A stretch of DNA of 64,000 bases from Cyanophora paradoxa CCMP329 (GCA_004431415.1 QPMI01000026.1:82064-146063); one strand, 5' to 3'; shown: positions 4,673 through 35,197, numbered from the stretch's first letter. Numbers and translations: made by a program. Notes: generated by a model from the sequence alone, not told the origin.

Positions 4673-5475
4673 ATGACGGAGAGCGTGCAGACCTTCGGCA
4701 AGAAGGTCCGTATCCGTGCCGGGCGAATCGGGGCAGCAGGTGGACCGTGGCTGATCGCGTGTCGGCCGCGGCGCACAGAAAACCGCTATCGCGGTGGCCT
4801 ACGCCAAGAAGGGCAAGGGCCTCATCAAGGTCAATGGCAGCCCGGTGGAGCTCGTCCAGCCGGAGACCCTCCGCTTCAAGGTCTTCGAGCCGATCCTCCT
4901 CCTCGGCCGCCAGCGGTTCGCGAACATCGACATCCGCATCCGCGTGACGGGCGGTGGTTTCACTGCTCAGATCTACGGTGCGCACGCGCAGCCAGCCCTC
5001 TAGCTTTCGGGATGTTCTCGCTAACGCAGGCCGCGGCCCTGTGCAGCTGTCCGCCAGGCGCTCGCCAAGGCGATCGTCGCCTACTACCAGAAGTGTAAGC
5101 TCCGCGCTCTGGACGCGTAGCGGGCCCAGCGGCTAGCGGGACGAGATCGACGAGCGCCAGGGATGGCTAAAGTTTGAGATCACGCTACTCTAATGCGTGA
5201 CAATCTTCGCGCTGAGGTTTCTCTATCTCTTCCGTGGACGCCCGCCGCCCCCCGCACACCGCACTCTAGCTCCGTCGCTGCGCCATCGTCCGCCTCGCTG
5301 ACCTCCGGCATCCACCTGGGGCACCGCAGACGTCGACGAGACGTCGAAGAAGGAGATCAAGGACATCCTCCTGGCGTACGACCGCTCTCTCCTCGTCGCG
5401 GACCCCCGCCGCTGCGAGCCGAAGAAGTTCGGTGGCCGTGGTGCTCGCGCCCGGTTCCAGAAGTCGTACCGTTAA
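4673..5475 (+). CDS. RPS16: 40S ribosomal protein S16 (uS9), 4 coding exons
   Basis: [31 protein letters not shown]...[74 protein letters not shown]. Confidence 0.98.
5156..5218 (+). ncRNA. Candidate intronic box C/D snoRNA in RPS16 intron (5095-5329)
   Basis: Intron is about 3x longer than its neighbours. Degenerate C box GGGATGG, D box CTGA at 5212-5215, short terminal stem. TAAAGTTTGAGA (5168-5179) is antisense to the conserved LSU rRNA motif UCUCAAACUUUA. Confidence 0.35.
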
Positions 5476-8364: not shown

Positions 8365-10194
8365 CTAGCTAGGCGTCACTTTGGCTCGATATTTTTCTAG
8401 TCGGCTCGCTCTCATTGGGTGTGTATGAATGATTAGTATACATGAGTGTGATCCCCACCGCGCTAAGCTCGTCTCCCGATCCCAGCTGGGAGGCAGATCG
8501 GTGATTATGAAAGCTGCCAGCGGGCTGGCAGGTACCAGTTCATGATCATTCGCAGCAGCGCGCTCGAACTCGGTGACGCCGAGGGCGTCTGCGGCGAACT
8601 GCGCCGAGGGCGTCGGCGGGTGGGCTCGCTGCAGCGGGCGGCGGGCGTGGCGGACCTGGCGCGTGAGCATGAGCTCGAACTCCGTGACGGCGGGGTCGGT
8701 GGGGCGGAAGCAGGGGAAGCGCTCGATGCCGAGGTAGGCGGCCAGCGCCTCGGGGGAGGGGAAGAGGAGCCACGCCGCGTCCCGCGCCCCGCCCCGCTCC
8801 GCCGTGTGCCGGTGCGAGTCGAACACCAGCAACTGCCCCGCCGCCGTTGCGAGGGGCCGGACGCGAGGCGGGGGGGCGGGCGAACCGTGCAGGGGAGGGC
8901 GGCGAGGGGCGGGGGGCGCCAGCGGCGCGGGTGGGCGCGGTACGCGTCGCGGACGGCTTGGGCGAGCTCGTGGCGGGGCGGCCCGGGCAGCGCGAGGGCG
9001 ACGAGGGTCTGGCTCGCGCACGTGACGGCGAGGCCCTCGGGCCGGCGCCGGCCCGCCTCCCACAGCTCCCGCGCCGGCCCCTCGAACGCCCGCCCGTCCG
9101 GCTGCTCGCCGGTCGGCCGGGGCAGCGGCGCGGCGGCGGGGGGCGGACCGCGAGGGCGCCGTCGACGCGGACGGCGACGCGGAGGGGGCGGAGGTCGGGC
9201 GCGGCGCCGGCGACGGCGTCGAATTCGGTGTGCTCGACGCCCGCCGGCGCCGCGCCGCCCGCCCTCGCCATGTAGTGCTCGTACAGCAGCGTCCCCTCCC
9301 GCAGCACCTGCCGCCGCCGGTCGGGCGGCGCGGCGGCGGGTGGCGCGGCGGCGGGCGCAGGGCGGACCCTGTCGACGGCCTCCGGGTCCCAGTAGGGCGC
9401 GTCGCCCCGCATCACCTGCAGCGCCGCCAGCGCCGCGATCGCCGTGCACGCGCTCCGCCCACCGACGCCCTTCGAGCCCTGGTGCTTGTTCCCAACCACG
9501 CGCGCCACTGCGGCGCGGCGCGGGCGCTCAGCGGCAGCCGGACCCGCGGCGCGCGGCTCGCCCTTTCGCCGCACGGCGCCGCGGCGCACCGTACGCTGGA
9601 TGTACTTCTGCAAAAGGAAGGACGTTCATCGCTCCGTCCGCCGTCGTGCCCATGGAAGGCTGCGCGCCGTGAGAAGTGAGAATGCGGATCCGCAGAGCGA
9701 GCGAACAGCGCAGTCCGCCGGCCGCGAACCGAGACCAGTCATCTTCAGTCTCGAAGATCATGCTGTAGTCTTCCTGCTGCACAGCAGGCACGTCTACGAG
9801 CAGCCTCCATTCCCCGCTGTCGGCATCCTTGTGCATAGGCATGTGAACGTCCTGTGTGCAAGTGTCAACTAGGGACGTGTGAAGCGGTTGAACTCACAAT
9901 CGAAGGCATGAACGCCGTAGCGCTGATCGCGCGGTCGCCCGGCAGGCGGAGCTCGGCCGTCCCAGAGCGCGACACATCGAAACTCGGAGAACCAGCGCTG
10001 CGCGCCTTCGCGAAGAAGAACTCCCGCAAAGTTCCCGCGTCGAAGCCCAAAGAGACATCCACAGGCATCGCCTGCAGGTACCCGCCGTCCGCTGCTGCTG
10101 CAGTGCTGCAGGGCGATTCTGAACTGATGGATCGGTGCGCACGGCTCCCGATTTCTGCTGGGGAACTCGGAAATTTGTGTTGCGGGAGCTTCAT
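8365..10194 (-). CDS. CBM48-like + viral-tegument-like deubiquitinase (VTD/peptidase C76-like), copy A
   Basis: VVGNKHQG..GGRSACTAIA (Cys codon 9446-9448) and QLLVFDSH (His codon 8812-8814) followed by AAWLLFPSPEALAAYL. N-terminal MPMHKDADSGEWRLLVDVP..YSMIF..W..DGAMNVL. Ends approximate. Confidence 0.7.
8591..10078 (-). repeat. Inverted duplication arm A (about 1.5 kb; partner 18927-20414)
   Basis: Near-identical reverse complement including introns; matching ORFs 9528..9842(-) and 19163..19471(+). Confidence 0.95.
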
Positions 10195-10380: not shown

Positions 10381-12790
10381 ATGGCGAGGGACAAGATATG
10401 CATCTGGTGCGGTTCCCCGGACTGGAGCGGACACGTCGAATACTGCAAAGGTCTGCACACAGAGAACATTGCTTCAGATTCTCATCGTTCAAATCCAATT
10501 CCTCCTCATCATCGTCCGTAGCACGATTGCAAGCGGGAAGATCGCTGAGCCTGGCGAGCACCTCAGCGGCAGCTGCTGCGCAATCCGCCCCAACGTATGC
10601 GCAAGTAGCAGCGCCAGCGTCACGCACTCCAAGCTCCGACTCGAGCTCCAGTAGGAGCGGTGACCGGGAGAAGGCTTCGATCGGGGACGCAATCGTAGCA
10701 GCCGGCAAGCACTTCTTGCACGCAGTCGGCTCGGCAATCGGAGGTTCGAGCTCGAGCAAGCAGAAGGGCCGGGCAGAGGGCGCGATGGCGGACGTGCCAC
10801 TGGCTCCGCGCTGTTATGACTTCGCCAACTCGCGCCTCACCTTCCGCACCTTCACCATCACCTACAGGGACGAGGACGACCGGCGCGAGCCCGTCGCCGT
10901 CTCTGTGCGCGGCACCTTTGGCCACGAGGCCACGGTGAGCGCGCAGGGAATGTCCTCCGCCCCCCATTGTCTGACGGTCGCGCAGTGGTCGCAGGACATC
11001 GAACTCGCGGCCGTGCCGAGCGAGCAGGGCGTGCTTTGGCAGCTGCGGATAGATCTCCCGCCGCGCCGCGTTGAATTCCGATTCCGCGTCACTTACGAGC
11101 GCGGCCGTGAGCCGGAGTGGCGCACCTCGGTGCGCGTTGAGGCTTGGGCGAGGCTGTGGGCCACCGGTGACGCCAACGCGCAGGCGGCGCACCCCTGCGA
11201 GGGGCAGCACCGGAACAACTTTCTCTCCGCCGGGTACTCCTCCAAACAGAGGAGGCCAATTCCCAGTGCGTTGCGACCTGACCCCCCTTACCCGACCTGA
11301 CCCTACCTGACCTCGCAACCGCCCCCCCCCCCCCCCCCCCCCCCCCCCTCCTCCCGCGCACACCCCGCAGCCTCCATCGGAAAGGCCAACGACGCGGTCG
11401 ACGCGACGTGGAGCATCGTCGCTTGCATGTTCGCCGCCTCGCGGCTGCATGGCGGCGAGCGCGCCTCCTCGCTCCACGAGCTGGCCGGCGCCCTAAGCGC
11501 GGTGCGCCTTTCATATCAACTCGGGAGACGCTCGCGCCGATGGATATGCGGTGCCGCAGGCGATACGGGAGGCGGAGAGGGCGGGGCAGGACAGGAGGGT
11601 CGAGAGCGCCGTCAACGCCCTCCTTGCTGCGGAGGCGGAGCCGGCCGAGTTCCTGCGCGCCGTCCCGCCCCTCGCCAGCCTCACCGCTGGCGAGTCCGCC
11701 GTCGACATCCTCGAGCGCTCGGTGCGCCAACTCCTGCGAGACCGCCGCTTGCAACCCCGCTTATGTGTCCCCGCAGCTGTGCCCGCTGGGGCTGGACAAC
11801 CTCGCTGCGGCACTTGGCGGTGCAGCGGCCGGCCCTCTGCGGACGCTGCTCGTCGGCTTCGCGCTGCACCACGTGCTCGTTGTCTGGGGCGGCCCCGTGC
11901 CGGCGGGGCGGTTGGTGCTCTTGGACCCGGTGCCCCGCGGCGACGAGATCGGCCCGTCGGGCGAGCGGGAGGAGTCGCGCCGCGCCGCCGCCCTCGAGTT
12001 CGACGGCACCCAGGCAGTGCGGGCGTACCTCAGCCGTGAACTCTTCGGCGGGCGTGCCGAGCAGCAGGACGCACAGGACGACCGCAACTCTCTTGCGCGC
12101 TTCTGCGAGCTACGCCCCAAGGCCCCGGCTTCCACCCCCTCCGGCTCGCCAGCGGTCGGCGGGGCGTTGCTGGACGGGGGTGGGGACGCGATGGAAGTTG
12201 TGCGCCACCGGCTCGACGCGGAGCAGCGGATCGCCCAGGAGCGGCGGCGCCAGGAGGAGGATGAGCGGCGGATGGCACTGGAGCGGGACGAGGCGGCCCG
12301 GCAGCTGGCGGCACGGGAGGCGCAGCGGCGGGCGGAGCAGGAGGAGGCGGCGCGGCAGCAGGCGGCCCGCGAGGCGCAGCGGCGCGCCGACGCGGAGGCG
12401 GCCGAGCGGGAGGAGGCGCAGCGGCTCGCGGAGGAGGCGCGCAGGCGGGCAGAGGAGGAGGCGGAGCTCGAGGCCCTCCGGGAGCTGCAGCAGCAGCAGG
12501 AGCGGCTGGAGGCTGAGGTCGCGCAACTGCGGCGCGAGTACGAGGAGCGCAAGGCGCACAACGATCAGCAGCAGGGGGAGCTCGAGAGCGCGCGGCTGGC
12601 CCTCCGCACCCAGAAGACGTGAGCTTAGAACCCGGTCACCACCTTATCGGCTTCTAGTACTGATACCGTGCTGCTCAGGTGTTCGACAGAACTTCACAGC
12701 CAGAAGCGCGGGGCAGTGTACGCCACTCAGCAAATCCTGGACAGGCTACACGACCGGCTGCAGGGGGCCCTCGCTCTAGATCTTGGTTAA
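10381..12790 (+). CDS. Zn-knuckle + CBM48-like + catalytically degenerate VTD-like domain + coiled coil
   Basis: N-terminal CIWC..HVEYC. CBM-like AVSVRGTF..WSQDIEL..WQLRIDLPPRRVEFRFRV..EW..NNFL. DUB-like LVLLDPV..AAALEFDGTQAVRAYL aligns to LLVFDSH..AAWLLFPSPEALAAYL. E/R/Q/A-rich tail. Confidence 0.6.
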
Positions 12791-13215
12791 TCATTGAACA
12801 ATAAACATCCTCAGCGCTCTCGGTGCCCCTACGCCCCTTGGCCTAGCTATAGACCCCTACTCGTCCCCCTAAGCACGTGCATACGTATACGTATACGTAC
12901 CCCCCGGAGGACATACGTACGCTTGTACCCCTCGACGTCGACGTCGACTTGTGGGGTGCTTGCAATTGCGCCGTGGAGTGTCCTCCTCTGCGTACGGCTT
13001 CCATGGCCAGGCTGAAGATCTAGAGGCCTGGGCGGAAGCCCGGGCCGGCCGCGGTGTTCTGAATTCGAACGAGGGGGTCGACGTCAAACCGGTACCCCCC
13101 GGTACCGGAGCACACACACGCGTACGCTAGCGCTTGCAATTGCACACACACGTGCACGCTAGACCTTTAGATCGATATCTGCAGCTTGGAACAGCCTGCG
13201 GAGCTCGAGACGCCC

Positions 13216-14918
13216 ATGGCGGCACGAGATGAACGCGATACGGGCGAGCGCCCGTCAAGCAGGAGCCACCGAGACGCCGAGGTGGACGACCTTGACGGAC
13301 CAGGCGAGTCATTCTGGGAAGGCGTGCCGCCACGGCGTCCGACTCGTGAGTGGACCGATCCGCCACTCGCATCAAGCTCGTCCAGCTCAGCGAATCCTGC
13401 TCGGAGTCGGGGTGTTCCGCGGCGCGAACAGTCCGACGAAGACGAGGGTCATGCGTACGAGGTCAACCGGCGCCTCGATGATCTGGAGCGCCGGCACAAG
13501 AAGCTGGAGCGCCAGATGAAGGCGGAGCTACTTCACATCTCGCAAGAGTTGCAACAGGAACGCGAGGCAAGGGAGCAGGCGGAGGAGAGGGCGCGGTCGC
13601 AGGCCCGCGACTTCGAGAACCAGCTGCGGCGCCTGACTGACCAGCGCCGCCGCTTCCTGGAGGATGTCCGCGGCGACCTGCAGGTGTGCGCGTCCTAGCT
13701 GTAGGGCCTGCAACGCCGCATCCGTCTCTTGACTTTCGCACGGAATAGCGCAGGCTGCAGGAATCCGAAGAGCGCGCAGAGCTGCTCCAACAGCAGATAG
13801 ACCGAATGAACGTGCAGGGGACGGCGCAGCCGCCGCATGCGCAGTTGCAAGCGCGCTTCCCGGCAAACATCCAGGTTCGGGCCAGGCTCCGCCGCTGCGC
13901 CGCGACTTCTGACTTGTCGATCAGACGAACGAGCCGTACGCGCCTCTGGGGGCCGGACTGGTCGCCGCTCCGAACCTCGGGCCAGGGCCTTTTGCGGTTG
14001 CAGCGCCAGCGGCCGCGGCTGCACTCGTTCAGAACCCAGCGACGGCGGCACCGCCCGTCCCCCCGGCCCGTCAACCTGCGCCGGCGCCCGCCCAGGCGCC
14101 GGCTCCCCAGCCGCGTGTCCAGCAGCGGACCATCGGCAGCGGCGATATTCGCTGCCTGATCGATGACTGCCCGCATCGTACGTCTAGGAAATCTGTCTGA
14201 CTCGTTCGCTGGCGGCTATCTGACCAGTTATCAGGTTTTGAGGACGAGGAAATGCGCAACCACCACATCGCGTTCAACCACGACGACGGCGGCTGTACGT
14301 GCGAGACCTGCAGCGGCGGCGCCCCCGCCCCCGCCGCGAACCGGGCCCCCGCCCCCGCCCCTCGGCCGGCCCCGGCCGCGGCTCCGGCGCCTGCAGTCGC
14401 TGGGCCGTCCCGTGCGGGAAACCAGCAGGCGCCTGGGCCGGCTGCTGCGGCGCCGGCTGCTGCGGCGCCGGCTGTGGCCAACGAGCCGATGCAGCTCTTC
14501 TTCCGCTGCGCCGGCGGCGGCGACAACCCGCGGCTGCCGGTGGCGTGCACGCGAAACGAGCGACTGGTCGACGTCCTCGAGCGCGCCCGCGCCGCCCTCA
14601 ACGCCGAAGAGCTCACCTCGGTGCGCTGTGCGGGCTCAGAGCTTGGCGCGCTCCGCTGACCGCGCCCGTCGACCCCGCGTGCAGCAAAACATCCGCCTGG
14701 TCTTCGTTGTGAGCGGGCCGAACAAGGTCGCGCAGCCGCCCATCGCGCAGCGGATGCAGCAGAGCCCGCTGGCGACCCTGGGCGAGTGCGGGGTCCCCAG
14801 CGGCGCTGAAATCTACGTGTCTGTCAAGGTGCCAGCTTCCCCGCCTCGCGCGCCCGCTTCCTTCGCTCGCGCACTCACTTTCGCTCAGATAATCGGACAA
14901 GCGGTCGCCAAGGATTAG
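13216..14918 (+). CDS. Coiled-coil + C2H2 zinc finger + C-terminal ubiquitin-like domain protein
   Basis: Coiled coil (RLDDLERRHKKLERQMKAEL..). Spliced CLIDDCPHR/FEDEEMRNHHIAFNH. UBL-like MQLFFR..ERLVDVLERAR../QNIRLVF..ATLGECGVPSGAEIYVSVK. Confidence 0.6.
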
Positions 14919-15583
14919 AATTGATTCGGATTAATTTATAACTTCGATTAACTTACTGGGGGGGAGGGGGGAGGGGGATCGGGGGAGGGGATCCCGGAGG
15001 GGGGGGGGGGGGGGGGAAGGGGGGCGGGGAGTGGGAGGGCGGGGGGGGGGGAGGAGGGGGGGGGTGGCCGGGGGGGATGGGGGGGATATATATGAAGGGG
15101 GAGGGGGATTCTTATCCATCTACCCACGGGCCCCTTCTTCTTTAGCACGGCCCTCCGGGCCTGTACCCCCTGCATATATACGTAGCCAGTCCTGCGACCA
15201 TCTTGCCATGCTTAGCATAGCCTATAACTATAGCTACAGCTATAGCTTGCGCTAGCACTCAGCCGTTTGAACTGTACTCATATGCATGCAAGCCAGGGCC
15301 TCTGGACCAGCTGCCAGGCTGCAGGAAATAGATGGAATGGATCTACTGACTGCAGCTGGCTCAGCCTGGCTGCATATCCTTAGTAATGTCTGTGATGACG
15401 GTTTACGTTCGAGACTTGCAAAGCCGGCCGCGTCGGCGGCATGGCTGCCGCCCGTCGCGTACGTCCCGGCGTGGGAAAGTTTGGTGTAGGGGGATTGATG
15501 TGAGAGAAGCCGGGGGAGGTGGGGGCTGGGGCGAGGGAAGGGGCCGCCGGGACGGCCATGCTGATGGCTTCGCCGTCCCCCCG

Positions 15584-18511
15584 CTACTGCATGAGTTCGG
15601 CCTCGACGAACATAGGGTGGGTGGGCGTAAAGTGGTGGCTGTGGTGCTGGCACGCCGCGCTCTGTACCCCCCTGGAAGCCCGGCACTCCTCCGAGTGCTC
15701 CGGCAGGAACGTCCTCTGGCGGCGGTGTCGAAGATTGCACAAAAAAGAATCAGTCACGAAAAAGAAGACGAACCCGGCAGTCCGCGTAGTAACAGAATTC
15801 CTGCCCACACTGACCCGCAGGAAAGTCAAGACGCTGCGAGTAATGTACAAATGATAGCTAAAGATGCGGACCCGGCAGCGCATGTGGCGGCAGCCGCGAG
15901 CCAGCTGCACGTACGCGGTGCAGCGAGGGCAGCGGGGCCAGCCCTTCTGCCGAGCCAGTTCTGTCATCGCTCTGTCCTCGGGACTCCGCTCGTCCTCCGG
16001 AAGGGCCTGGTACTGCAAGCGGATCCGAAGAAAAGAAATAGTCAGCCAGGACGTATAAAGTCGCTGGAACAATAGCGAAAAATAGCTACCTGCTCGCAGG
16101 TGATTTCCTGGTGCCAGGGCGCGCGGCAGACAGCGCAGTAGCGCTTCCGGCAGCCGAAACATTCGACGTTCTCGCCTGCCGTCGGATCCCACTCGCAAAT
16201 CATGTCGCACGATGGATAGGGGCAGTCGCTTCGTCGCTCTACGAAATTTCCCCGCGATTTGACGCAAGGTCAGCGGACAGTAGCTTGTCAAACTTTGAAG
16301 GCTCGCACCAGGGGGAATGTGAGTGAGGGTCAGGTTGCGCATGAAGATCTGGAGGTCCTTGTCCCGAAGCCCGACCAGCATCGCGAGGTTCTCGCCCAGC
16401 TCCCCCTCGAAGAGCGTCGGGCACCTCGAGCCTCCGGGGCACCTGATGGGGTACAGCGTCGGGTCCTTGAACCGCGAGTCGATGTAGCCCCGCAGGCAGT
16501 TGCGGCAGGTGTAGTGCTCGCAAGTCCCCGCCGTGCCGAGGCAGTCCATCTGAGGTGTCGGCGCGGCTTCAGCGCTCGAGCTAGAAGAGGTTTGAGAAGC
16601 TTAGGGGCGTCGACGCACGGAAACCTTGATGCGCTCGCCGAGGCAGACGCAGCACTGCGCGAGGCTTTCGTCGAGCTCCTGCTGCACGGCGTGCAGACGA
16701 GCCTGGTCGTGATGAATGGACCGGAGGGGAGGAGGGGGGGAGGAGAGGGGGGGGGGGGGGGTGTCAGCTGCGATCTCGGTCCAGCTTTGGGATTTCGGCG
16801 GATTCAAACCTCGAGCGCGTCGATGCGGTCCTGCGCCTGCTCCGTGGCGCCTTCGACGCCGCGGATGCGGCCAACGTCCCTGAACACGCGTTCTGCGCGG
16901 TGAAGTGGTGGGGATGAGGTGGTGGGGGAAAGGAGGGGTAGAAACAAAGATCTAGAGCGAGCTGACCGATGCGGTTGAGGAGTTCCGCTTCGGCGTGCTC
17001 CCACAACGACCCGTCGCGATCGTCGCCGGCTTCGCGGTACACCTGCTCCGCAGGAGATGTCAAACACGCGAAGAAATGAATGTCAGAGGATCGAACCCGC
17101 TGCCATTCCGACTCGACGTCGGCTGTGGCGTCCTCGATCCGATTGATGAGCTCGTCCACCTCAAGATTTTACACGAGTCAGCCGGTATACATCCGGAGAC
17201 AGATCTAGATTCATAGAGGGGAGAATACCCGTGCGGCGGCCTCCGCGGCGGCGTGAGCAGCCTCGCTGGCCTCTGCCTGCAGGTTGAGCAGCTCTGCAGA
17301 GGGGCCGCCGTTGTGAGAGGGGGTAGCTAGGAGGCGGGGGCCGGGGCCGGGGGACGTGCCTTGGGTTGCTGCGCGGGCGCGGGCCTCGGCATCCTGCGCG
17401 CGCCGTCGGAAGGCCTCTTCGGCGTGGCGCGCGGTCTGCTGAGCCCTCTGCACGGCCAGGTCAGCTTGCCGCTCCCGGTGAGCTGCAAGCCGCTTTGCTT
17501 CATCTTCGCTTCTCTTTAGCCTCGCAATCTCCTCCCGCAGTTCGCGCTCCAGCCTCTCCGCGTTCCGAGCAGCCTGTGCGACGTCTTTTATACTGCGTTT
17601 CGATCGCAAGTGCAGGGCCACGCGTGCACCTTTTCGGAACGGTCCTCTTCTCTCTGAGCCCGATTTTTTTGACTGCTGAGACTTGCTTCCAAACGGTCGC
17701 AATCCTCTTCAAGCTGCGAAGGGAAAGCAAGCGCTTGCAGTCATGATCATATGCATGTGATCGATTATGCGATTATAGGGAGCGGTTGCAAACGAACTTT
17801 GGAAATCTTCTTGTCTTTCTGCACCAGCTGCGCCCTAAGACTCATCACCAGGTCTTCCTTGTCAGCGAGCGCCTGCCGCAGTGCGGACTGCTTCGATTCG
17901 GGTCAGATTCGACTACTCAGGATAGGGTGGAGACTGGGACTGACATCCCGCGTCCTTACGATCGCGACGTCACGCTTGAGCGCCTCCAGCTCACGCCCAG
18001 AAGCTATGACGGTGAAGAAGCTGTCATTCATTGTAATGAAACTTGCAAGTCTAATAGACTACGTACCTATGAGCCTGTCTTTCAGTTCTGCATGCGCGGA
18101 TCGTTGCACATCAGCGACACGCGCGCAGAATTGAACGTTCGCATGCAAACCTTGTGCGGCCGTCCGCCATTTGCGATAGGCAACGCGCATCTTGGCGCAG
18201 GATTCTAATCCGCATAGTTCTCCATCCACGACCGCTGCGCACGCATGATGATCGGACACGCGAGCGCTGCCTTTGAACAGCAGAAACTGCTCACAGTAGA
18301 AACTGTCGGAGCGTGAAGGGCCAGCGAGACGATCTCGGTCCGTGCTCTCGTCTAGATCTGCAGCTGCAGATGAAACGGGTCGCCCGGGCGGCGACTGGCC
18401 GCCCAGTCCTGCATCAATATCGATATCCTGCCCGCGCTGCGGTGTAGCAATAGTCTCCGGCACGCTCGCGGCCGCGCCCGGCTCGCGGTCCTCGTCTGGG
18501 GGATCCATCAT
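15584..18511 (-). CDS. RBR (RING1-IBR-RING2) E3 ubiquitin ligase with long N-terminal coiled coil
   Basis: RING1 CCVC..CEHYTCRNC..IRCPGGSRC; IBR CPYPSC..ECFGCRKRYCAVCRAPWHQEITC; RING2 CPRC..GCRHMRCRCGQEFCY. The 5' exons are less certain. Confidence 0.88.
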
Positions 18512-18829: not shown

Positions 18830-20900
18830 TTCCTTGAGGTTACGAGTTCCGGATCCCCAGCACAACTCGGAACCCGCGCGCACCGATCCACCAGTCAGGT
18901 CGGCCCTGCAGCAGCGGGCGGCGGTTCCTGCAGGCGATGCCTGTGGATGTCTCTTTGGGCTTCGACGCGGGAACTTTGCGGGAGTTCTTCTTCGCGAAGG
19001 CGCGCAGCGCTGGTTCTCCGAGTTTCGATGTGTCGCGCTCTGGGACGGCCGAGCTCCGCCTGCCGGGCGACCGCGCGATCAGCGCTACGGCGTTCATGCC
19101 TTCGATTGTGAGTTCAACCGCTTCACACGTCCCTAGTTGACACTTGCACACAGGACGTTCACATGCCTATGCACAAGGATGCCGACAGCGGGGAATGGAG
19201 GCTGCTCGTAGACGTGCCTGCTGTACAGCAGGAAGACTACAGCATGATCTTTGAGACTGAAGCTGACTGGCTGGTCTCGGTTCGCGGCCGGCGGACTGCG
19301 CTGTTCGCCCGCTCTCCGCATTCTCCTCACGACGCGCAGCCTTCCATGGACACGACGGCGGACGGAGCGATGAACGTCCTTCCTTTTGCAGAAGTGCATC
19401 CAGCGTACGGTGCGCCGCGGCGCCGTGCGGCGAAAGGGCGAGCCGCGCGCCGCGCGTCCGGCTGCCGCTGAGCGCCCGCGCCGCGCCGCAGTGGCGCGCG
19501 TGGTGGGGAGCAAGCACCAGGGCTCGAAGGGCGTCGGCGGGCGGAGCGCGTGCACGGCGATCGCGGCGCTGGCGGCGCTGCAGGTGATGCGGGGCGACGC
19601 GCCCTACTGGGACCCGGAGGCCGTCGACAGGGTCCGCCCCGCGCCCGCCGCCGCGCCGCCCGCCGCCGCGCCGCCCGACCGGCGGCGGCAGGTGCTGCGG
19701 GAGGGGACGCTGCTGTACGAGCACTACATGGCGAGGGCGGGCGGCGCGGCGCCGGCGGGCGTCGAGCACACCGAATTCGACGCCGTCGCCGGCGCCGCGC
19801 CCGACCTCCGCCCCTCCGCGTCGCCGCCCGCGCCGACGGCGCCCTCACGGTCCGCTCGCCGCCGCCGCCGCGCCGCCGCCCCGGCCGACGGGCGTGCAGC
19901 CGGACGGGCGGGCGTTCGAGGGGCCGGCGCGGGAGCTGTGGGAGGCGGGCCAGCGCCGGCCCGAGGGCCTCGCCGTCACGTGCGCGAGCCAGACCCTCGT
20001 CGCCCTCGCGCTGCCCGGGCCGCCCCGCCCCGAGCTCGCCCAAGCCGTCCGCGACGCGTACCGCGCCCACCCGCGCCGCTGGCGCCCCCCGCCCCTCGCC
20101 GCCCTCCCCTGCACGGTCCGCCCGCCCCCCCCGCCTCGCGCCGGGCCCCTCGCGACGGCGGCGGGGCAGCTGCTGGTGTTCGACTCGCACCGGCACACGG
20201 CGGAGCGGGGCGGGGCGCGGGACGCGGCGTGGCTCCTCTTCCCCTCCCCCGAGGCGCTGGCGGCCTACCTCGGCCTCGAGCGCTTCCCCTGCTTCCGCCC
20301 CACCGACCCCGCCGTCACCGAGTTCGAGCTCATGCTCACGCGCCAGGTCCGCCACCCCCGCCGCCCGCTGCAGCGAGCCCACCCGCCGCCGACGCCCTCG
20401 GCGCAGTTCGCCGCCTTCAGGTTCCACCTGGAGGAGATTGCGGCAGCACTGCCCTCGCCTCCTCCCGCCGAGCGGACGCCGTCGCGGCAGACGTCCGCAG
20501 AGCGCCAGGCACGGATCGCCTCGCTGCGCAAGCAAGTGCAAGACCTGGTCCGCCGCAGCTCTGCATCCGCGCGGAAACGGAGCCCTGACCCCGGAGCAGG
20601 AGGCGGAGCGGGGCGAGCTGGAGAGGGTCCGGGCAGAGGAGGAGCGGCGGGCGGCGCAACTCGCGCGGGACGCGGAGGACCTGAGGGGCGAGCAGCGTCG
20701 CGCGGAGAACGCGTGCGTCCCCGGACCGCCGGCCCGTGTACCCCGCAGGCCTGACCCCGGGGGCGCCCTCAGGCCCTGCCCGGAGTGCGAGGCGCTGGAC
20801 AAGAAGCTCGCGGGGTTTCAGGCGAGCATCGACGAGATCACCGCGAGCAGGCTGCGGGTCCCGGCTGGGCGCACGGTGCGCTGCGCCCTTTTCGTCGCGC
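18830..20900 (+). CDS. CBM48-like + VTD/C76-like deubiquitinase + coiled coil, copy B
   Basis: HQG at 19515-19523, SAC (Cys 19551-19553), FDSH at 20179-20190. Continues into a coiled coil (ERQARIASLRKQVQDL; EAERGELERVRAEEERR) and CPEC. Ends approximate. Confidence 0.7.
18927..20414 (+). repeat. Inverted duplication arm B (partner 8591-10078)
   Basis: Reverse-complement near-identity to 8591-10078. Confidence 0.95.
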
Positions 20901-21485
20901 TTCGTCAGCAACGTCCCCCCCCCCCCCCCCCCCCCCCTCTCGCCGACCGTCCTTACCCCGCCGCCCGTTCTCCCCCTCCGAACCCCCCGCCCTCCCCCCT
21001 CCCCTTCCCCCCCTGCCCTCCCCCCTCCCCCTCTCCCCCCTCCCCACCGCCCTTCTCGTAACCCCCACCATCCACTTAACTCCAGCCCCCTTTTCGCCCC
21101 AGCCCCCCAGCGCCCTCCTCGCCCGCCCCCTCCCCCCAAACCCTCTCCCGCACAGCCTCCCACTTACCCACGTTCTCCCACTTACATCGACCCCCTTCCC
21201 CTCTTTTCTTTCCGCTCCCCGACCCCCTCCCCTCTCCCGAACCCCTCCCAACAACCCGCCGGCCCACCAAATCTTACATAGCCACGCGCTCCCCCTCCCT
21301 CCCCCTCCTTCCAACCCCATCCCCCTTCTTCCGGCCCCGCCGCCCCCCCTCCCCCCCCACCCCCCCCGCCGGGCCCCTTCCCCCCCCCCCCCCCCTTTCA
21401 TTTTTCGCTCCCTCCTCCGCTCACGAAGTCTTGCAGGCGTCGTCATCGAGGGCCGATCATCGAGAGGTAACAAACTCGTTTCAGG

Positions 21486-22940
21486 ATGTTTGTTGGACAT
21501 GCACTTACCAACCTGCAGCCGCGAGCGGGGGAATCTTCATCGGAGGGTCCTTCTGTCGCCCCTGCTTCGTCTTCCGTGCACATCCCTAGCGGCTTCACTC
21601 GCCGCCTCTTGCCAACACGGACCGCCGCAGGGTCAGAGCTCGACTTTAGAGGCGGCGGCTCCTGGGGGCTTGCCAAGCTTGCCCAGAACGGGGCCTTCGG
21701 ATCCTACTTCGACGGCCCTTCCGGACCCTGGCGACTGCACGGTGCTCCTCAGACATCAGACCAGAGGCTGAAACATCTCATTGGACCGCAGACCTGGCGG
21801 GTCGAAAACTGCGCCCCGCCGGACCTGCGGGGGTACACCTACGCGTCGCCGCGGCCTGATATGGGCGCTTCGGCGCCCACAGGCCGCCCGCCTTTGCCGC
21901 GCGAGGCGGTGCGCCGTGCTCAAGTGAGCCGGCCGGTCGCTTGCAGCACCCTCACCTCGCCCGGCCGCGGCGGCGCGCAGGGCGCGTCTGCTATGGAGAT
22001 AGACGACGCGCGGCAGCCGACGCAGTCCGAGGAGGGTCTCGTGCAGCTGTGCCGCGAGTGCTCTCGGGGCCAGCGCCGGACAGAGCTCCTGCAGCTCGTC
22101 GACGTGGACGCGGCCGCCCCCGGCGCCAGCACCAGCGTCAATGACGACATCCACGTCGACGAAGGCGGTCTGCGGTGGCGGTGCGCGCGGGTCCCGCTCT
22201 TCTTCTGCAAGCGGCGTCTGAGGTCTGCCGCAGGCTCGCCTGGGATAACATGCTCTACGTTTCGGAGAAGCACCCCCTGCACCTGCGTCGCGTGTTCTGC
22301 AGACTCTGCAGAACTCAAGTTGCGGAACTTCTGGTGCGAATGAACGCTTACCCCTGATAGCTATAGCTCCTCAAAAAACGTTTCGACGCAGGTTGTGGGT
22401 GGCGCAAACACCATCCGCCTCTCGCACGCCGCTCTGGTCGCGGACCCGCCGCAAGACTTGCAAGAGCCCCCGGGCCCGCAGCAGCCGCCCACGCAGTCTT
22501 CGAGTGGATCCGCTGCTGAGGTGGCGCCCGTTTGTTTTTGTAGCCTCCTGTAGAACCGAGGAACTGAATCAAATCGACAGGAGCGGCGCGCTGTTGTCGC
22601 CCCGTTGGCTAGCGATGAATCCTTGCGTCCTCCACGACCCTCGCCTGCACGTGTGAGTGCCCGGAGCGCGATTTTGAGATTGCGTTCTCAAGATTGATCG
22701 CAGGATGCGGACGTCGACATGCAAAGCGACAACGCGGAACGGGGGACTTCTGCACTGCCCCGCAAGACTCTCTTCTGCGAACGATGCCCGGAGAAGGGCC
22801 ACGAGACCGCTGTCCTGCAGGAAGTGCTCCAGGAGGACGCTGTGCCGGCCGGCCGGAGGATGTTCCGCGACCGTGAGGGAAGGCGCTGGACGTGCGCTCC
22901 GGTCCTGCGCCGCCCGCGGCCGCACTCGCGGCCTCCTTGA
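21486..22940 (+). CDS. Hypothetical multi-exon protein with Cys pairs
   Basis: Exon-like blocks bounded by GT/AG (TWRVENCAPPDLRGYTY; LCRECSRG; CTCVAC; FCERCPEKGHE); no recognisable domain. Confidence 0.3.
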
Positions 22941-23734
22941 AAGCTGATCGTGATTTTCGCCATTAGGGAGGTCAAACCTGACCCCAAGCTGGATAGATTC
23001 ATCCAATGCCCGCAATGTTATCGTGTCTGTGCCAAGGTACGAAGGCCTCGTCATTCTTACGCCGCGGCGCAGCTGACGAGTTCCTGTAGGTCGACGTGGG
23101 GCTGGGGATAATCGAGCCATGGCGGAGCGACCAAGTAGAGCTTGCACACGTTGATGAGTTCTTGCGAAGATTCTAAGATGTAGATTTTCATGATCATGAT
23201 CATGATCTCATGAACGTATGCATGCACATGCACCTGCATGCGCAGGCCTGAGACTGCGGCCGCCGGGCAGCCTGGCAGCAGCTGCAGACAGCATGCGCAG
23301 CGCTATAGCTAGCGCTAGTTGTACGTATACGTCTACATGCATATATAGACCGCGGGCCGGGCTCGCGCGTGACGGCATGCAGCAGTACCACGGGCCCCCG
23401 GGCTCCGGATCCGGGCCCCCGGGCCGGCTTCGGAATTCGAATTCCAAGCCCGGGGGCCCTCAGGGGCCTTGCTTTCCGAAGCTTATATAATTAAGCTTAT
23501 AACTATATAATTACACTGTGACACCCGTGCTCGTGCGCTGCGGCACTGCAGCTGCAGCAGGAGCCGCAGAACTCATGATCATAATCGTGATCAGTGTACA
23601 TTATTATAATCAAATCACTTTTCGTGGGAGGGGGGGGGGGGGGCGGGGGGGGGGCGGGAGGGGAGGGGGAGAGGGGGGGGCGGGAGGAGATGTGAAGGGG
23701 GGGGGGGGTGGGGGGAGGGGGCGTTGGAAGAGAG

Positions 23735-23768
<34 letters not shown>

Positions 23769-23810
23769 GTTCCAGAGAGGGCCAGCCACCAAGCTGGAAC
23801 GGAAAGGGGC

Positions 23811-25750
23811 TCAGGACCACGTAGGGTGCCCGCAGGGAAAGGTGTGGTTCGGGGCAGGGCCTGGGGCTACAGTCAGGGTCGATCGCGAGAGCGATCGCGA
23901 GGGGCGGAGCAGCGGGAGCAGCACCGCCGCAGATCCAGCAGAGCTGGTACCCGCATTGGCAGGTGATGCAGTTACAGCCGCCGTTCTTCGTCACGCCGTG
24001 CCCGCAGCGGCCACAGACCTGCAGAAAAAAAGTCACGACACAGAGAGAAGGGTTAACGGTTATCGCACCCTGCAGCTCTGACGAATCAAGGCCGCGGTTC
24101 TGCAGCGACGAGCTGGAATCAAAGAGCAGCTTTGACGGCGAACTTCGCAGAGTACAAAGGGGGCGCACGCGTCCTCGCCCTCCTTGCCGTTCTCGCGCTT
24201 CCACCGTTGGAACTGCTCGCAGTTCATGTCTGCGTGCCACTGCGGCGGCCGCTAAGCGCCAAGGCCGCTAGCCTCGCCAGCTCGGATCGGAGCAGCAGGC
24301 ACCTGGCATTGGCATTGCTGGCACCAGGCGTAGCCGCACTCGGGGAACGGGCAATGGATCATGGCGATGTTGGGGTCGATCTGCAGCATGCGGGTCAGGG
24401 GGGGTGTACACGACTCGCTTCGCTGGGCTCTTTCTTTCCACTCGCCTCGCAGAAGCCCTTGCACCCGGGGCGGCGGCACTGCCTGCGCGGGACTCGGCAC
24501 CGCGCGGGAAAGGGGCGGGGGAGGTGGCGAAAGGGGGAGGGGGGGTACCAGGCGCGCTCCCCGACCAGCTCTCTGAACTTGTCGATGTTGATAGCGTGGA
24601 CCGCCTCGGCCATTTCGCCCCCCGTCGCGTTCTGCGGGCGCGCGCGCGTGAGAGCGCGCAGGAGGAGGAGAGCGGCCGCGGGCTCGGCACCTCGAGATCG
24701 ACCGTGCTCCAGCGGCCGGGGCAGCCGTCGGTGGAGGGGCACTGCGAGAGGGGAAGTCAGCGAGGCTCGACGGGCGTGGACAGGAGAAGGGGGGCGGAGG
24801 CGGGCGGAGCAGTGGAGGGGGGGGGGGGGGGGAGGTTCGGGAAAATGGCCCTATAGCTAGCCCCAAGCGCTCTGCACCTTCGGCTCGAGATGCCGCGCGC
24901 CTATTTCTGCCTTCGCGTATCTTTCGGCGCACTTCCAGTGGAACTGGTGGGCGCAGCAGCCCGCCTGCGGCGGCAGTGAGCGGCTGCGGGGAGAGAGGTC
25001 AGGCGCGCTCGCCTGGAACATCAGGTCCTCGGCGACGCGATCTGTACACATGGAACACTCCTGCACTTCGAACTGCTCCGCTGCGCCCGGGCATTGGGCA
25101 TCGCTGCGCTACTGCGCCCAGGCGGCGAACCGCAGATCCGGTCCGCCTCCACTTGTCGTTCGCGCTCCCGCTCGAGCCGCTGCGCCTCGCGGGCCGCCTG
25201 CTGCCGGGCCGCCTCCTCCTGCTCCGCCCGCCGCTGCGCCTCCCACGCCGCCTGCTGCCGGGCCGCCTCGTCGCGCTCCCGCGCCATCCGCTGCTCTTCT
25301 TGGTGGCGCCGGAGCGCTTCCTCCTGGCGCTGCTGGATAAGCAGCCGCCGCTGCTCTTCGACCGCACGCTGATCTGCGCCTAGGCGATCAAAGGGCCGCG
25401 GTGTGCCCTGATCATGGGCCGCCCTCCGCCCGCCCAGCGCGCACCCCGCTGATCGCGCTGGGCGCGCTTGTGCTCCAGATCGATGCGGAGCTTTTCGATG
25501 CGCTCCTTTTCCTCCTGAACTCGCCGCCGCAGTCTGAAGAGCTCGCGAGTCGCGGGGTCGTCTGGGCGCCAGCGCAGCAGGTTCTCGCTGACGCCCAGCT
25601 CGAACACCATCTGAAGGTCCTCCAGCTGTCGCAGATTAAGCAAGTCCACTACAGCTGGAGGTTGGTTCTGCGGGCGCTCACCTGCCGCTCTTCAATGAGG
25701 GCCTTCAGGCGCTTCTCGTGTACAGAAGCATCTGGTGCGGCGTAGGACAT
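23811..25750 (-). CDS. Second RBR E3 ubiquitin ligase with N-terminal coiled coil
   Basis: RING1 ECSMC..CCAHQFHWKC..CPSTDGC; IBR CRRPGC..HCPFPECGYAWCQQCQCQWHADMNCEQFQRWK; RING2 CGRCGHGVTKNGGCNCITCQCGYQLCWIC. Confidence 0.88.
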
Positions 25751-27235
25751 TACTGACAGGCAGATGCGGAACTGCCGATCCTGGCCGGGGCCGGGCTGCC
25801 TCGAAGTCCGGAGTGACTGTACCCCCAAAGTGAAGTCCGTGACTGTCCGTCGTAGTCCGAAGCGCCGAGGCGGCAAGGAGGCTCCCTTCCCCACTTCGAG
25901 AACGTGAGGCAGCGCGATCTCTCGCGATTTCTCACATCAAGATCTGCTGGACAGCTTTCGAAGCGACTGCTACCGGTACTTGACAGTTCCCACAGTTCGC
26001 GGTGCTTGACCCACTTTTTCGCCAAGAGATGCTCATCTATCGGCTGACTGTGTGCGCGCGCCCACAGCCTTCAGCTGGGAACTCGCCCCGCTTGCTCTCC
26101 TTTCCCGCGGTCCGATCGCTTGCAGTCGCGCTTCGACGATCATAGAGTCACGTTTCCTTGCTTCATGGATCTTGGAAAGGGGCGCTTGCCGCGATGCGAC
26201 AGCCGGCACCGTCGCGCGGCTCGCTCGACCGACTGGCGCGGCGGGGGCGCCCGTCGGGCGCCGGCGGGGTTGGTGAAGTCTTTGGCAGTGCATTGATGCG
26301 TAATTCGGCAGGCTGGCACGACCTCGGCCGACCGACCCCCGCCCCGCGGCTCGCGTACCCCTCCCCGGACCCCGCCGACCCCACAGCTGGATTCCCCGGG
26401 GTCGAAAACCCCTGAATCAAGTTCAACGGGTCCGTGGGGCGAAGGTCGGTTCCTCCCCACAGCCCCCACCCCCCTTTCCCCCCCCCCCCCCCCCCCCCCT
26501 CCGCGCCGTTCTCTTTTTCCGGAGCTGCCTCGGCAAGGTGGTATCATGGGGAGGGGTGCGGTGGCGGCGCTGCGTTGCCATACGGCGCTAACTGCCTACT
26601 TGTCAATCAGGGAGGAGGGAAGACAGGATAGGATCCTTGTGCTGGGAGCTCGCGACGTTGACATGGCGGGCCCCCCAGCAGCGAGCTGCCTCGCTCGGGT
26701 GTGTGGCCCTTTTTCGGGTGTGGCCCAATGTCGTCGAGTCCTGCCGCCCCGCCCTTCAGGTTCCCGGCGCGTGAGCGACGGGAAGGCCCGCGTTCTTCTG
26801 CGCAGGGCCCGCCCCGCCTCAGCTACCTGCGGCGAGCGCTGCTCGGCCCGCCCGCGCCCGGCATCGCGTCGTCGCGATTGAATGTCGGTCCGCGAACCCC
26901 ACTGGCCACCCTCGCCTGTACCCTGACACGAAAACAGGTTCGGAGGGGCCTGCAAGGGGCTCCGCGATCGCGAGCTGGTCCGCCCCGAGTCCGCCGCCGC
27001 GTGCCGGCCGGCCGACCGACTGATATCGATCATGAGCCGATTTGGCCCCGGCCCGCATCTGTACGGTCACAGACTGTACCCTTGAGCTTGTCAATATATT
27101 AATTGCAATTGGTTCATGCACAGTACATCATGAGCTTTCATAAACCATTAAACCATTCATCTCTCTGATACCAACTTATACTTAGACCTACATCCAAAAA
27201 AAGTGCTATGTGCTTGAAAATTCGGGAATTCGGGA

Positions 27236-29763
27236 TCAATTCTGATGGAACGTGTTACCGTTCACAACGCAGGCGCTGCCTGGCAGAACATTGACGCCGC
27301 CGCAGCTTGCATACAACGGGTTCGAGATGCGTTCGAGCATGTTCTCCTTCACAGTTCCCTTGCCTTGCTCTGCCACGCAGATCCCAAACCGCTGGTCGTG
27401 GATCCTGCGGGGAGCCGGCGCGGGGCTGACGTTAATGTTAGAGGAAGAGGCATGAAAGGGCCGCCAGGCACCGGTTGCCTTGTATGACGGGGTCCGCGCC
27501 GCCAACAGTGAGGAAGCCCAGCCCCACGTTGCCGTAAATATCGTTGCCCTCCGCCATGCCACACGCCTGCCGTTCGAAGCGGAAGGCCACCCCGCCGCAG
27601 TCGTGTACTACGTTCCCTGCGCCGCGCAAATTGTCCGAGGTTGGTAACCGACGCAAAATGTCCTTATACACGGAGCAGAGCTGAAAGCCAATCACGCACG
27701 GCGCAGCGTCGGGGCTGTCCCCTCATCGCGGACGTAGATGCCGATCGCCGAGCTGGAGACGTCGCAGTCCTCCACCACCGCCCGGCTTCTGGCGTGGATT
27801 TCTACAGCACACTTGTCCCCAATGCTACGGATCGTGATGCCGCTCACGCTCGGCATTGCGGAGCCCGCGAAGGACAGAGTAGTTCCACGGCCCCATTCAA
27901 GGACGGCATCCCGCGACCCGACGATGCGCACATCCTTGGTGAGCAAAACCTGCTCCCGGTGCCTGCACCGAGCACAGGCGTTAGGAAGCGAGAACCAGAC
28001 TATATCGCACAAGAGGCACGCACAAGCCCGGCGCGAGTCGGATCGTCTGACCTATGGCGGCAAGCCTCACAGCATTCATGATGCTCTCGCCTCGTTGCAC
28101 CTGAACCTCCACAGCACTGTCTGCAGCTGTCTGCTTGCACCGCCACTAAGAATGGCCCAGCGATTATGCAGCATGTGGATTGACGCACGTCGGAGCTCGC
28201 GGCCACCTCTGCACAGAGCCGCATCGCTTCGAGTTGCGACGACAGGTCCTCCGCTTGCTGCTCCAGCGTGCCTGAGCCCGCGAACGCTCAGCAAATTGTG
28301 GCCGTCCCGGGCGCGTGGGCCGCACCCTTCTCGCGCGCGAACCGCGCCACGAGGTCGTCTCTCTCCTGGGAAAGGTCAGCATTCTTCTGAGCGAGGTCTG
28401 CCTTCTCTCCAGCAAGTTCGTCCTTCTCTCGTTGGGCCGCCGCCAGCTGCGTCTCGGCCGCCTCTGCATGGAGCCACATCACTTCGAGTTGCGACGACAG
28501 GTCCTCCGCTTGCTGCTCCAGCGTGCCTGAGCCCGCGAACGCTCAGCCAATTGTGGCCGTCCCGGGCGCGTGGGCCGCACCCTTCTCGCGCGCGAACCGC
28601 GCCACGAGGTCGTCTCTCTCCTGGGAAAGGTCAGCATTCTTCTGAGCGAGGTCTGCCTTCTCTCCAGCAAGTTCGTCCTTCTCTCGTTGGGCCGCCGCCA
28701 GCCGCGTCTCGGCCGCCTCTGCACGGAGCCGCATCGCTTCGAGTTGCGACGACAGGTCCTCCGCTTGCTGCTCCAGCGTGCCTGAGCCCGCGAACGCTCA
28801 GCAAATTGTGGCCGTCCCGGGCGCGTGGGCCGCACCCTTCTCGCGCGCGAACCGCGCCACGAGGTCGTCTCTCTCCTGGGAAAGGTCAGCATTCTTCTGA
28901 GCGAGGTCTGCCTTCTCTCCAGCAAGTTCGTCCTTCTCTAGGGCAAGTCGCGCGAAGAGATCCCGCAGGCAGAGCCCTGTCCAAGGTCACGCGATCCGCG
29001 CGGTGGGCTCGGGGCAGAGAGCCGGGAAGTGCAGTACCGAGGTGCGCCTCTCGATCCAAAATGGAGAGTTGTGCAGTGCAGCCGACATCAGCGTTGAGGC
29101 ACGGTCGCTGGCACACTGCCTCGTGCGCCTGCACAGGACGGGCCGGGGTGGGTCGAGGGAAGAGGCGCAGGGAGAGGCGAGAGCGCGCACCTCCAGCTCG
29201 ACGATGCATACACGCGCCCCGCAGCAGCGGCAAACGCCCCACCCCTCCGGGCAGCGCTCCACGTGGGCCGCGAAGGTGCCCACATTGCCCCGCCACTTGC
29301 AGCCGCGCTCCAGGAACCGGCAGCTGCATTCGCGGCATCAGAACGAGAGCGATCTGCTTGTAAATCTGCCCGAAAGACACGCACTGCACTCTCAGATCGC
29401 TGATTTGGCGGCTGACGAACGGCGCGGGCCGGAAGCGCTCGCGGTCAACGACCTCACGGTCGACGGGGCACCAAAGGCTCTCCTTCATGTACTCGTACTG
29501 AAAAGGGTAGCCCTTGCCTTCTGCCATCCTCTCCGCACACGCCCGGCAGAGTGCGTGGTCGTTCGAACACCCAAGCAGCGTCTGAGCACGCGCAGCAATT
29601 GCAACGTCGAAACCAGCGAGCATGGCGGCCCAGGCCAACAAGGGCGCACCGGCTCACGCATGACGAGTAAACAAATGGAGCATACGAGCTCGAGCCCGCT
29701 CGCCTTCGCCTCCTCGCCAGGCTCGAAGAACTCCGATGGCCACCCGCCCTGCCCGATGGCCAT
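27236..29763 (-). CDS. RING + TRAF-type zinc fingers + repeated coiled coil + right-handed beta-helix (FBXO11-like PbH1) protein
   Basis: LVCSICLLVMREP/..CSNDHALCRAC..CPVDRE..ISDLRV; CRFLERGCKWRG..AHVERC; PCLNADVGC..REAH. Beta-helix repeats (VVEDCDVSSSAIGIYV; GNVVHDC; EGNDIYGN; GNRIHD). Confidence 0.85.
28195..28939 (-). repeat. 3 x 255-bp tandem exon+intron repeat encoding coiled coil
   Basis: Units start near 28200, 28455 and 28710; each is a 201-nt exon (TLEQQAEDLSSQLE..REKDELAGEKADLAQKNADLSQERDDLVARFAREK) plus a 54-nt GT-AG intron. Confidence 0.95.
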
Positions 29764-34553: not shown

Positions 34554-35197
34554 CTAGCCAGCCGCGGCTCTAGATCTAACTAGCCTCCGGCCGTCTCGGG
34601 AGCCGAGGCTGGCTCTGTCCCCCATGGCCATCCGCCCGCCCGCGCGCCTGCAGCTGCTCCCCCCACCCCGCCCCGCCAGGTCCCGGCCCGTCGCTCCGGT
34701 CCTCTCTTCCATTCGCGCTCAGCTCAGATACCCCCTCTTCCTCCCCTCCGCCGCTTGTTCAGATTGAGCGTATGTAGTTTAAGAGCGGGCGGCGCAGCCC
34801 AAGGCCAAGAACTTCGGAACGTCGCTCAGACGCGGGGGGATTGCTGGGCTGGGGCGCCGGCCGGCTCAGCACCTTCAGCAAACTAGCACTGTTCGAGCCG
34901 ACTCAGCAGTGGAACTCGGCGCGGGGCCGGGGCGGGCACGCCGTGACACAACAAAACGGTCCCCTTAGGGAGTTGAACGGACTGCAGGGGAGCATGTGTG
35001 ATCTGGCAAGCCTAAGGTAGCGGTGACTGCAGCCCCTCTAAGAAGCGTTCTGTGAGGCAGCCAAGAGCACGCGCTTCGGCTGAAGGCGCTCTGAGGCCCA
35101 GCACGCCCGGCATCGCTCAGCGTCGACAGTCGGCATAGCTAGGCGTCCTGGCCGCACGCTCGGTCTTCTTTGTTGCCCGAAGAGCGGGTTGCACCGC

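Follow-up and report, generated by a model that had tools for sequence, protein, structure and literature searches.

The closest described relatives of the protein analysed here are the K6-selective VTD deubiquitinases, namely the Waddlia enzyme Wc-VTD1 (8ADB/8ADC), SnVTD of Simkania, Nf-VTD of Naegleria and the Agaricomycete VTD-RBR proteins (PMC9741609, PMC10643670). Our protein is encoded by the gene that we call copy A, in a window of Cyanophora paradoxa DNA (the whole analysed stretch of 64,000 nucleotides). The K6-selective enzymes are its best match in sequence, as they are the best match in structure for the model of a homologue, and they share with it an association with RBR ubiquitin ligases, although the RBRs are here separate neighbouring genes, without fusion. 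Copy A differs from them in carrying an N-terminal module of CBM48 type and in its short alpha-9 region, and its own enzymatic activity is a prediction. The host differs as well: it is a glaucophyte, whereas the Discussion of Erven et al. (PMC9741609) names Excavata, Alveolata and Stramenopiles. The same authors term the biological role of protist VTDs enigmatic. The herpesvirus tegument deubiquitinases (UL36, M48 2J7Q and BPLF1; PF04843) and the Helitron VTDs (DrT1-VTD2, 8ADD) resemble copy A in its predicted fold class, in the Cys-Asp-His order of the catalytic residues and in an H-Q-G motif; copy A, in contrast, is a cellular, intron-rich gene.

For the N-terminal module, the reference is the glycogen-binding domain of AMPK-beta (CBM48; PF16561; 1Z0N), the binding residues of which are kept in a homologue from outside Cyanophora (P0005/P0008), to which copy A aligns. 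The module is attached to a protease here and to a kinase scaffold in AMPK-beta. Plant DUCs, which combine a C2 domain with a VTD-like fold, are analogous in design, as in both a beta-sandwich targeting module precedes a deubiquitinase with a VTD fold, predicted in the case of copy A; the DUCs, however, bind membranes and order their residues Cys-His-Asp with a gatekeeper, whereas copy A has the D-x-H order that marks VTDs off from plant DUCs and YopT (PMC9741609; bioRxiv 10.64898/2025.12.04.692294). Membership of the plant DUCs, which have an aromatic gatekeeper, is ruled out for copy A by its D-S-H order and its CBM48-type N-terminus. Laforin (CBM20) with malin, and HOIL-1L, provide a precedent for ubiquitin enzymes at glucan particles, glycogen itself being ubiquitinated (PMC13345935, PMC13666283). 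These are, however, animal systems of the ligase side or phosphatases, with no homology to copy A, and no glucan-targeted deubiquitinase was found in the available parts of the two sources.

That VTDs occur in protists and that the VTD family is modular is already known. The first-pass annotation of this DNA knew of no described fusion of a CBM with a VTD, and none was found in print in the literature on VTDs, CBM48, CBM fusions, starch-binding deubiquitinases and Cyanophora starch, a search that covered few subscription papers. In Erven et al. (PMC9741609), the word 'carbohydrate' is absent from the available main text, and CBM, AMPK, glycogen and Cyanophora from three supplements; CBM, starch and glaucophyte are likewise absent from the available text of the DUC preprint (bioRxiv 10.64898/2025.12.04.692294). 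We regard CBM-VTD as a new domain architecture within a known deubiquitinase family.

Gene structure of the locus

The window is eukaryotic DNA of high GC content, and its introns are short and of the GT..AG type. Database matches identify copy A as g6926 (P0002), a second copy (copy B) as g6922 (P0001) and a paralogue on another contig as g7196 (P0003), all from Cyanophora paradoxa. The interval assigned earlier, 18830..20414, is the duplicated part, with 20414 being the end of the duplication; the gene itself occupies 18937..23173 on the plus strand, from 18937, where an in-frame ATG first follows a stop, to a stop codon at 23171-23173. The features referred to below are the following.

18937..23173, plus strand: copy A gene (P0002, g6926), with a CBM48-derived module, VTD protease, charged helix, low-complexity linker and Cys-rich tail
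18937-19107, 19154-19279, 19340-19409 and 19492-19631, plus strand: copy A exons 1-4
19692-19849, 19900-20115 and 20170-20346, plus strand: copy A exons 5-7
20407-20547, 20600-20712 and 20773-20875, plus strand: copy A exons 8-10, with further exons downstream
18937..19409, plus strand: CBM48/AMPK-beta-derived module, residues 1-118, as placed by hhalign to P0005
19492..20346, plus strand: predicted VTD protease domain, exons 4-7
19518-19520, plus strand: Gln132 of the VTD domain, which we take to be the oxyanion residue
19551-19553, plus strand: Cys143, predicted catalytic Cys
19779-19781, plus strand: Asp199, aligned to Glu363 of Wc-VTD1
20182-20184 and 20188-20190, plus strand: Asp299 and His301, the Asp-x-His of copy A
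19807..19813, plus strand: frameshift of one base within a run of C in the assembly, with an extra C at 19810 in X1 and X3 spliced contigs and also in copy B
20407..23173, plus strand: copy A tail, an E/R/K-rich helix ending in CxxC, a Pro/Ser-rich linker and two Cys-rich repeats
8591..10172, minus strand: copy B (P0001, g6922), a recent partial duplicate, ATG at 10068
10381..12787, plus strand: gene C (P0007, g6923), exon structure from annotation, head-to-head with copy B
about 15700..18500, minus strand: RBR ligase gene 1, divergent from copy A, RING1-IBR-RING2 with GCxHMxC intact
about 23750..25900, minus strand: RBR ligase gene 2, convergent with copy A

All introns of copy A are GT..AG, and 643 codons are open through exon 15 when a placeholder is set at the 19810 break. 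GT..AG joints were present in contigs from three of the four sequencing runs (X1, X3 and X13, presumed to be RNA); run X12, with introns covered and no spliced joints, behaves as DNA. For intron 2 (in its A-form) and intron 6 of copy A, the joints were placed from splice signals, contig ends and the annotation. As assembled, copy A is one C short at 19810, between the exons that carry the Cys and the His, and annotation P0002 sidesteps this break by omitting 23 residues. As the spliced X1 and X3 contigs carry the missing C, which in the X1 contig is the sole difference from copy A over 19511-20058, the frameshift is an assembly error and the reading frame of copy A is intact.

Copies A and B are 95% identical over 1593 nt; across 350 codons, 8 differences are synonymous and 9 are non-synonymous (pN/pS of about 0.4). 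Copy B is without the tail of copy A. Its state was read from contigs of B type placed on the sequence of copy A. Exon 2 has a deletion of 4 nt near 9739, which is present in X12 and in spliced X1, X3 and X13 contigs, and the spliced frame stops at codon 109, ahead of the protease. Annotation P0001 regains the frame by retaining the 70-nt intron 2, a form that was not seen among the contig matches listed. Copy B is a transcribed, damaged duplicate in which the deletion is real; it could at most yield a VTD-only product from a downstream ATG, or one that retains intron 2.

In the tail of copy A, the Cys-rich repeats hold four CxxC motifs and are weakly similar to each other (z 2.9, a score reached by 28 of 2000 shuffles); they matched no family. 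These repeats are likely to be zinc-binding, and the spacing within the repeats at 21981-23173 (plus strand) is, we presume, like that of the beta-tent zinc domains (Yippee/RIG-I CTD).

Other parts of the window were characterized more briefly. Housekeeping genes for enoyl-CoA hydratase (minus strand) and ribosomal protein S9 (plus strand) lie at 3012-5000, and 13100-14920 (plus strand) is a probable gene that combines a coiled coil, an exon resembling a Cys/His zinc finger and a C-terminal region of ubiquitin-like appearance by eye, with no Pfam match. A 255-nt tandem repeat of 97-99% identity occupies 28197-28939, near a beta-helix-like ORF at 27441-27722. A direct duplication of about 1.8 kb (35196-36998 and 45784-47561; 92% identity) is without CBM or VTD. 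At 37600-40200, diverged repeats with a unit of about 200 nt and 65-75% identity form an array that probably encodes a repeat protein with introns. A Helitron or viral origin of the locus was rejected, as copy A is a spliced stand-alone gene and no Rep, helicase, transposon or viral Pfam match was found in the 130 of 155 candidate ORFs scanned between 1 and 30 kb.

The protease domain

The pattern HQG-x7-SAC at 19515 and the pattern LLVFDSH at 20176 (plus strand) are present in copy A and recur in copy B (minus strand), so that each is found twice across all six reading frames of the window, as against means of 0.25 and 0.0, respectively, in 20 shuffles. The earlier statement that the motifs are intact in both copies stands for the motifs but not for the reading frames, copy B being truly frameshifted. 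The predicted triad of copy A, Cys143, Asp299 and His301, aligns to the catalytic residues of 8ADB and 8ADD and is intact in copy A, copy B, P0003 and P0005. Copy A also shares with the K6-selective VTDs G-x-S-A-C-T at the catalytic Cys, F-D-x-H, and an acidic residue at the position of Glu363, which Wc-VTD1 requires for activity (PMC9741609).

Pfam gave no match for either domain of P0001-P0003, PF04843 included, and searches of Pfam and the PDB with single exons gave none either. Several other approaches agree with one another. The A3 profile (P0008, P0001 and P0003) matched Waddlia VTD1 (8ADB) in the PDB at E 7.3e-5, with nothing else below E 0.4, and the alignment paired the catalytic Cys and set Asp199 on Glu363. 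With the Helitron-like P0006 included in the profile, 8ADD ranked above 8ADB, and M48 (2J7Q) gave no sequence match in the PDB profile searches. A HMMER search of 1.84 billion representatives (E of 0.001 or less) returned five proteins, these being two of the queries, P0004, P0005 and P0006. P0004 was discarded as a repetitive spurious match. P0006 (E 2e-4; hhalign 93.4%) contains three PF04843 domains (Pfam Herpes_teg_N, E 5e-26), and the match to P0005 (E 1.1e-5) spanned both the module and the protease. In the ESM Atlas, residues 120-365 of the paralogue P0003 gave top matches of 0.95, 0.94 and 0.94, with 17 of 30 matches lying in PF04843-bearing clusters.

When considering predicted structures, it should be noted that support for the VTD fold comes from the model of the homologue P0008 (residues 1-292), which has a pLDDT of 48 and Z values below 10. 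Foldseek ranked 8ADC/8ADB first for this model (prob 1.00, E 1.5e-3 to 2.2e-3). VIA-align also placed 8ADB first (Z 9.8, rmsd 4.2, 172 aligned), with 8ADD third (Z 8.3) and 2J7Q fourth (Z 7.6), these being moderate values among which an unrelated 79-residue protein ranked second (Z 8.9). The AlphaFold model of P0003 1-368 reached a pLDDT of 33 and had no Foldseek match.

The triad in D-x-H order, the 8ADB profile match and the ESM Atlas value of 0.95 to PF04843 clusters agree with the C76/VTD assignment of the first-pass annotation; its choice of UL36/BPLF1 as the model is replaced, as among characterised enzymes the K6-selective Waddlia VTD1 stands closest to copy A. Judging from these sequence comparisons, copy A is very probably a catalytically active deubiquitinase. 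A lack of reactivity towards Ub or NEDD8 probes had been named as evidence that would speak against the assignment. This argument is invalid, since the VTDs of fungi, Naegleria and Simkania show no reaction with either Ub-PA or NEDD8-PA and yet cleave K6 di-ubiquitin (PMC9741609, PMC10643670). Whether copy A would itself prefer K6 linkages is evenly balanced, because 8ADD wins once P0006 is in the profile and because the region of copy A that matches the K6-associated alpha-9 helix of Wc-VTD1 is short (and proline-rich).

One should also consider that the VTD fold may here act on another ubiquitin-like modifier or on an ester, or have no activity, rather than serve as a ubiquitin isopeptidase. 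The nearest homologue from outside Cyanophora is only about 30% identical, an insertion of about 35 residues lies ahead of the D-S-H strand and PF04843 is not matched in Pfam, all of which would fit such a divergence. Ubiquitin is, however, cleaved by all characterised VTDs (PMC9741609, Discussion), and with all three catalytic residues present in A, B, P0003 and P0005 and an acidic residue at the Glu363 position, we consider this alternative improbable and retain the reading of copy A as a ubiquitin-cleaving enzyme.

The N-terminal module and its homologue

The resemblance of the N-terminal exons to CBM48/AMPK-beta domains, as first proposed, is upheld as a matter of ancestry, by way of the homologue P0005/P0008, but is not detected by Pfam in the window's own proteins (0 CBM matches for three of three). 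In the ESM Atlas, residues 1-120 of copy A gave no usable match.

P0005 and P0008 are MMETSP and JGI records from outside Cyanophora, share about 30% identity with the Cyanophora proteins and have the architecture CBM48-VTD-coiled-coil. Aligned to the Cyanophora family (hhalign 96.6%, 237 columns), P0005 is colinear through module, linker and protease; its database start cuts off a first strand that is present in P0008. The N-terminus of P0005/P0008 passes the Pfam AMPK1_CBM model, with 34-37 bits against a cut-off of 26.8. The glucan-binding residues of AMPK-beta are W100, K126, W133 and N150 (PMC4032982), of which K126, W133 and N150 are matched when P0005/P0008 is aligned to AMPK-beta1 chains, and P0008 keeps all four together with the triad. 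This cluster of two members is the only non-Cyanophora carrier of CBM-VTD that was found. Among 960 candidates of 399-1271 aa, a word-indexed search with P0005 1-285 retrieved no protein other than P0005. Pattern scans, which spliced or distant genes escape, confirmed 0 of 333 and 0 of 40 stretches in metagenome contigs, 0 of 46 and 0 of 26 in viral contigs and 0 of 35 in prokaryote genomes, with no phage relative confirmed.

As the alignment is colinear through module, linker and protease, a single ancestral CBM-VTD fusion is indicated, and by this alignment the CBM-VTD-helix layout is conserved and predates the Cyanophora genome. P0005/P0008 is likely to bind glucan. Since its glucan site and its triad are both intact, the ancestor was probably a deubiquitinase stationed on particles of glycogen or starch.

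Taken alone, the module of copy A is similar to P0008 (z 4.8, a score reached by 3 of 2000 shuffles, with control pairs below z 0), less clearly so by hhalign (38%) or in comparison with gene C (z 1.9). Together with the homologue, this establishes by comparison that the N-terminal module is CBM48-derived. Two of the four glucan residues are kept in copy A, Trp96 being equivalent to W133 and Asn111 to N150. The K126 equivalent is Asp85 or Ser87, depending on the register, and at the W100 position, which we placed on the assumption that the G-S-F-x-x-W motif marks it, there is Ala52, with Phe53 adjacent. In P0003, the W100 and K126 equivalents are lost and that of W133 is Phe as well. Both modules have an extra N-terminal extension relative to AMPK-beta.

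As either substitution, W100G or K126Q, is enough to abolish the binding of glycogen by AMPK-beta1 (PMC6274970), it should be considered that both equivalents are lost in copy A, which makes direct starch binding doubtful. The loss of binding is nonetheless not certain, because Arabidopsis AKINbeta2, in which the site is partial, binds starch without K126 and N150 equivalents and with both tryptophans kept (PMC4032982). On balance, we consider it unlikely that the module of copy A binds glucan directly.

Neighbouring genes and proposed role

Gene C, overlooked by the first-pass annotation, bears a CBM48-type module at about 10785-11225 that keeps both tryptophans and the asparagine, with K changed to R (three of four residues). 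Its N-terminus matches the CBM of P0008 at z 15.2 (0 of 2000 shuffles). The VTD-like part that follows is similar to P0008 (z 5.2, 2 of 2000 shuffles), to copy B only at z 1.5, and is without the triad, as D-P-V replaces D-S-H (11912-11938) and no Cys stands at the aligned position; a long charged helix comes after it. As read from its annotated exons, gene C encodes a near-canonical CBM with a dead VTD-like domain, which is the reverse of the state of copy A.

Such complementary losses in paralogues 6 kb apart, both with helical tails, raise the idea of a division of labour, in which gene C would bind the granule and recruit or regulate the active copy A, the two forming a pair of pseudo-enzyme and enzyme. 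Inactive VTDs do exist elsewhere in the family (insect iVTDs, PMC9741609). The tails, however, are E/R/K-rich (0.36-0.45 charged, 0.12-0.15 LIVM) and are nearer to single-helix spacers than to dimerising coiled coils, and the splicing of gene C is that of the annotation; such a pairing seems improbable.

The two flanking RBR genes are real, being identified by IBR PF01485 (E 2e-9) and by motifs. RBR gene 2 has GCNC in its RING2 where RBR gene 1 has GCRH, the catalytic Cys position being kept and the His replaced. CBMs in these genes were ruled out, and no CBM or VTD was found elsewhere in the window, where local profiles matched only copies A and B and gene C (1207 ORFs). With no detectable CBM in either, nothing ties the RBRs to starch. 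A functional link between VTD and RBR is plausible, because VTD-RBR fusions have been published for Agaricomycetes (PMC9741609). A stretch of 127 nt coding for charged helix is common to gene C (12260-12386, plus strand) and RBR gene 2 (25173-25299, minus strand), with 117 of 127 positions alike, far above any other of 252 windows compared. It indicates that this cluster of ubiquitin genes recently swapped sequence, by shuffling or conversion, and is possibly the trace of a former VTD-RBR fusion.

The first-pass annotation had envisaged a system of (de)ubiquitylation on cytosolic starch involving these RBRs. Of this proposal, the RBRs remain; against the rest are their lack of a CBM, the loss of the W100 and K126 equivalents in copy A and the frameshift in copy B. 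In its strongest form, copy A would bind cytosolic starch by a reworked site (Trp96, Phe53 and Asn111), deubiquitinate granule proteins and oppose the RBRs. This has in its favour the CBM48 ancestry, the kept Trp96 and Asn111 with a Phe beside the W100 position, the retention of the module in both active lineages (copy A and P0003), the partial site with which AKINbeta2 binds starch (PMC4032982) and the fungal VTD-RBR fusions, which show that the two activities can work together (PMC9741609). Nonetheless, two of the four equivalents are gone in copy A and W133 is Phe in P0003, no CBM is found in either RBR and the adjacency of genes is weak evidence in a eukaryote. We consider this version rather unlikely.

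The reading that we prefer, with moderate confidence, is that copy A is a cytosolic, linkage-selective deubiquitinase of glucan-targeted ancestry, the module of which is now a weak glucan binder or a protein contact. Copy A would cut protein-linked ubiquitin chains by way of Cys143-Asp299-His301, most likely with linkage selectivity, like its nearest solved relative, Waddlia VTD1. Its CBM48-derived module probably retains little of its former affinity for glucan, so that any remaining glucan binding would be weak or would have given way to protein contact, and the link to starch is probably ancestral, not direct. We infer the cytosolic location and the substrates; the protein begins straight in the module, which leaves no room for a targeting peptide. 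The starch of Cyanophora is cytosolic according to the title of Plancke 2008, as cited in PMC13666283. Within Cyanophora, the family would be split into an active protease with a degenerate CBM (copy A and P0003), the frameshifted copy B and an intact CBM with a dead protease (gene C).

Should copy A prove unable to bind glucan, what remains is one further domain combination in a family known to be modular. P0008 1-292, with glucan site and triad both intact, is a better test protein than the copy A of the window. The range of VTDs gains a glaucophyte, and protist VTDs gain a possible substrate context. In mammalian tissues, glycogen is ubiquitinated, a modification that can direct it to lysosomes (PMC13345935). 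As a speculative extension, which we hold to be a long shot, a conserved protist family of glucan-targeted deubiquitinases might erase ubiquitin, possibly ester-linked on starch, and so guard the particles from lysosomal or autophagic turnover, with the Cyanophora members split into an active form with a weak CBM and a dead form with an intact CBM, beside the RBRs as writers. A deubiquitinase with a built-in CBM48 would offer a direct handle on glucan ubiquitination and on dedicated erasers beyond mammals.
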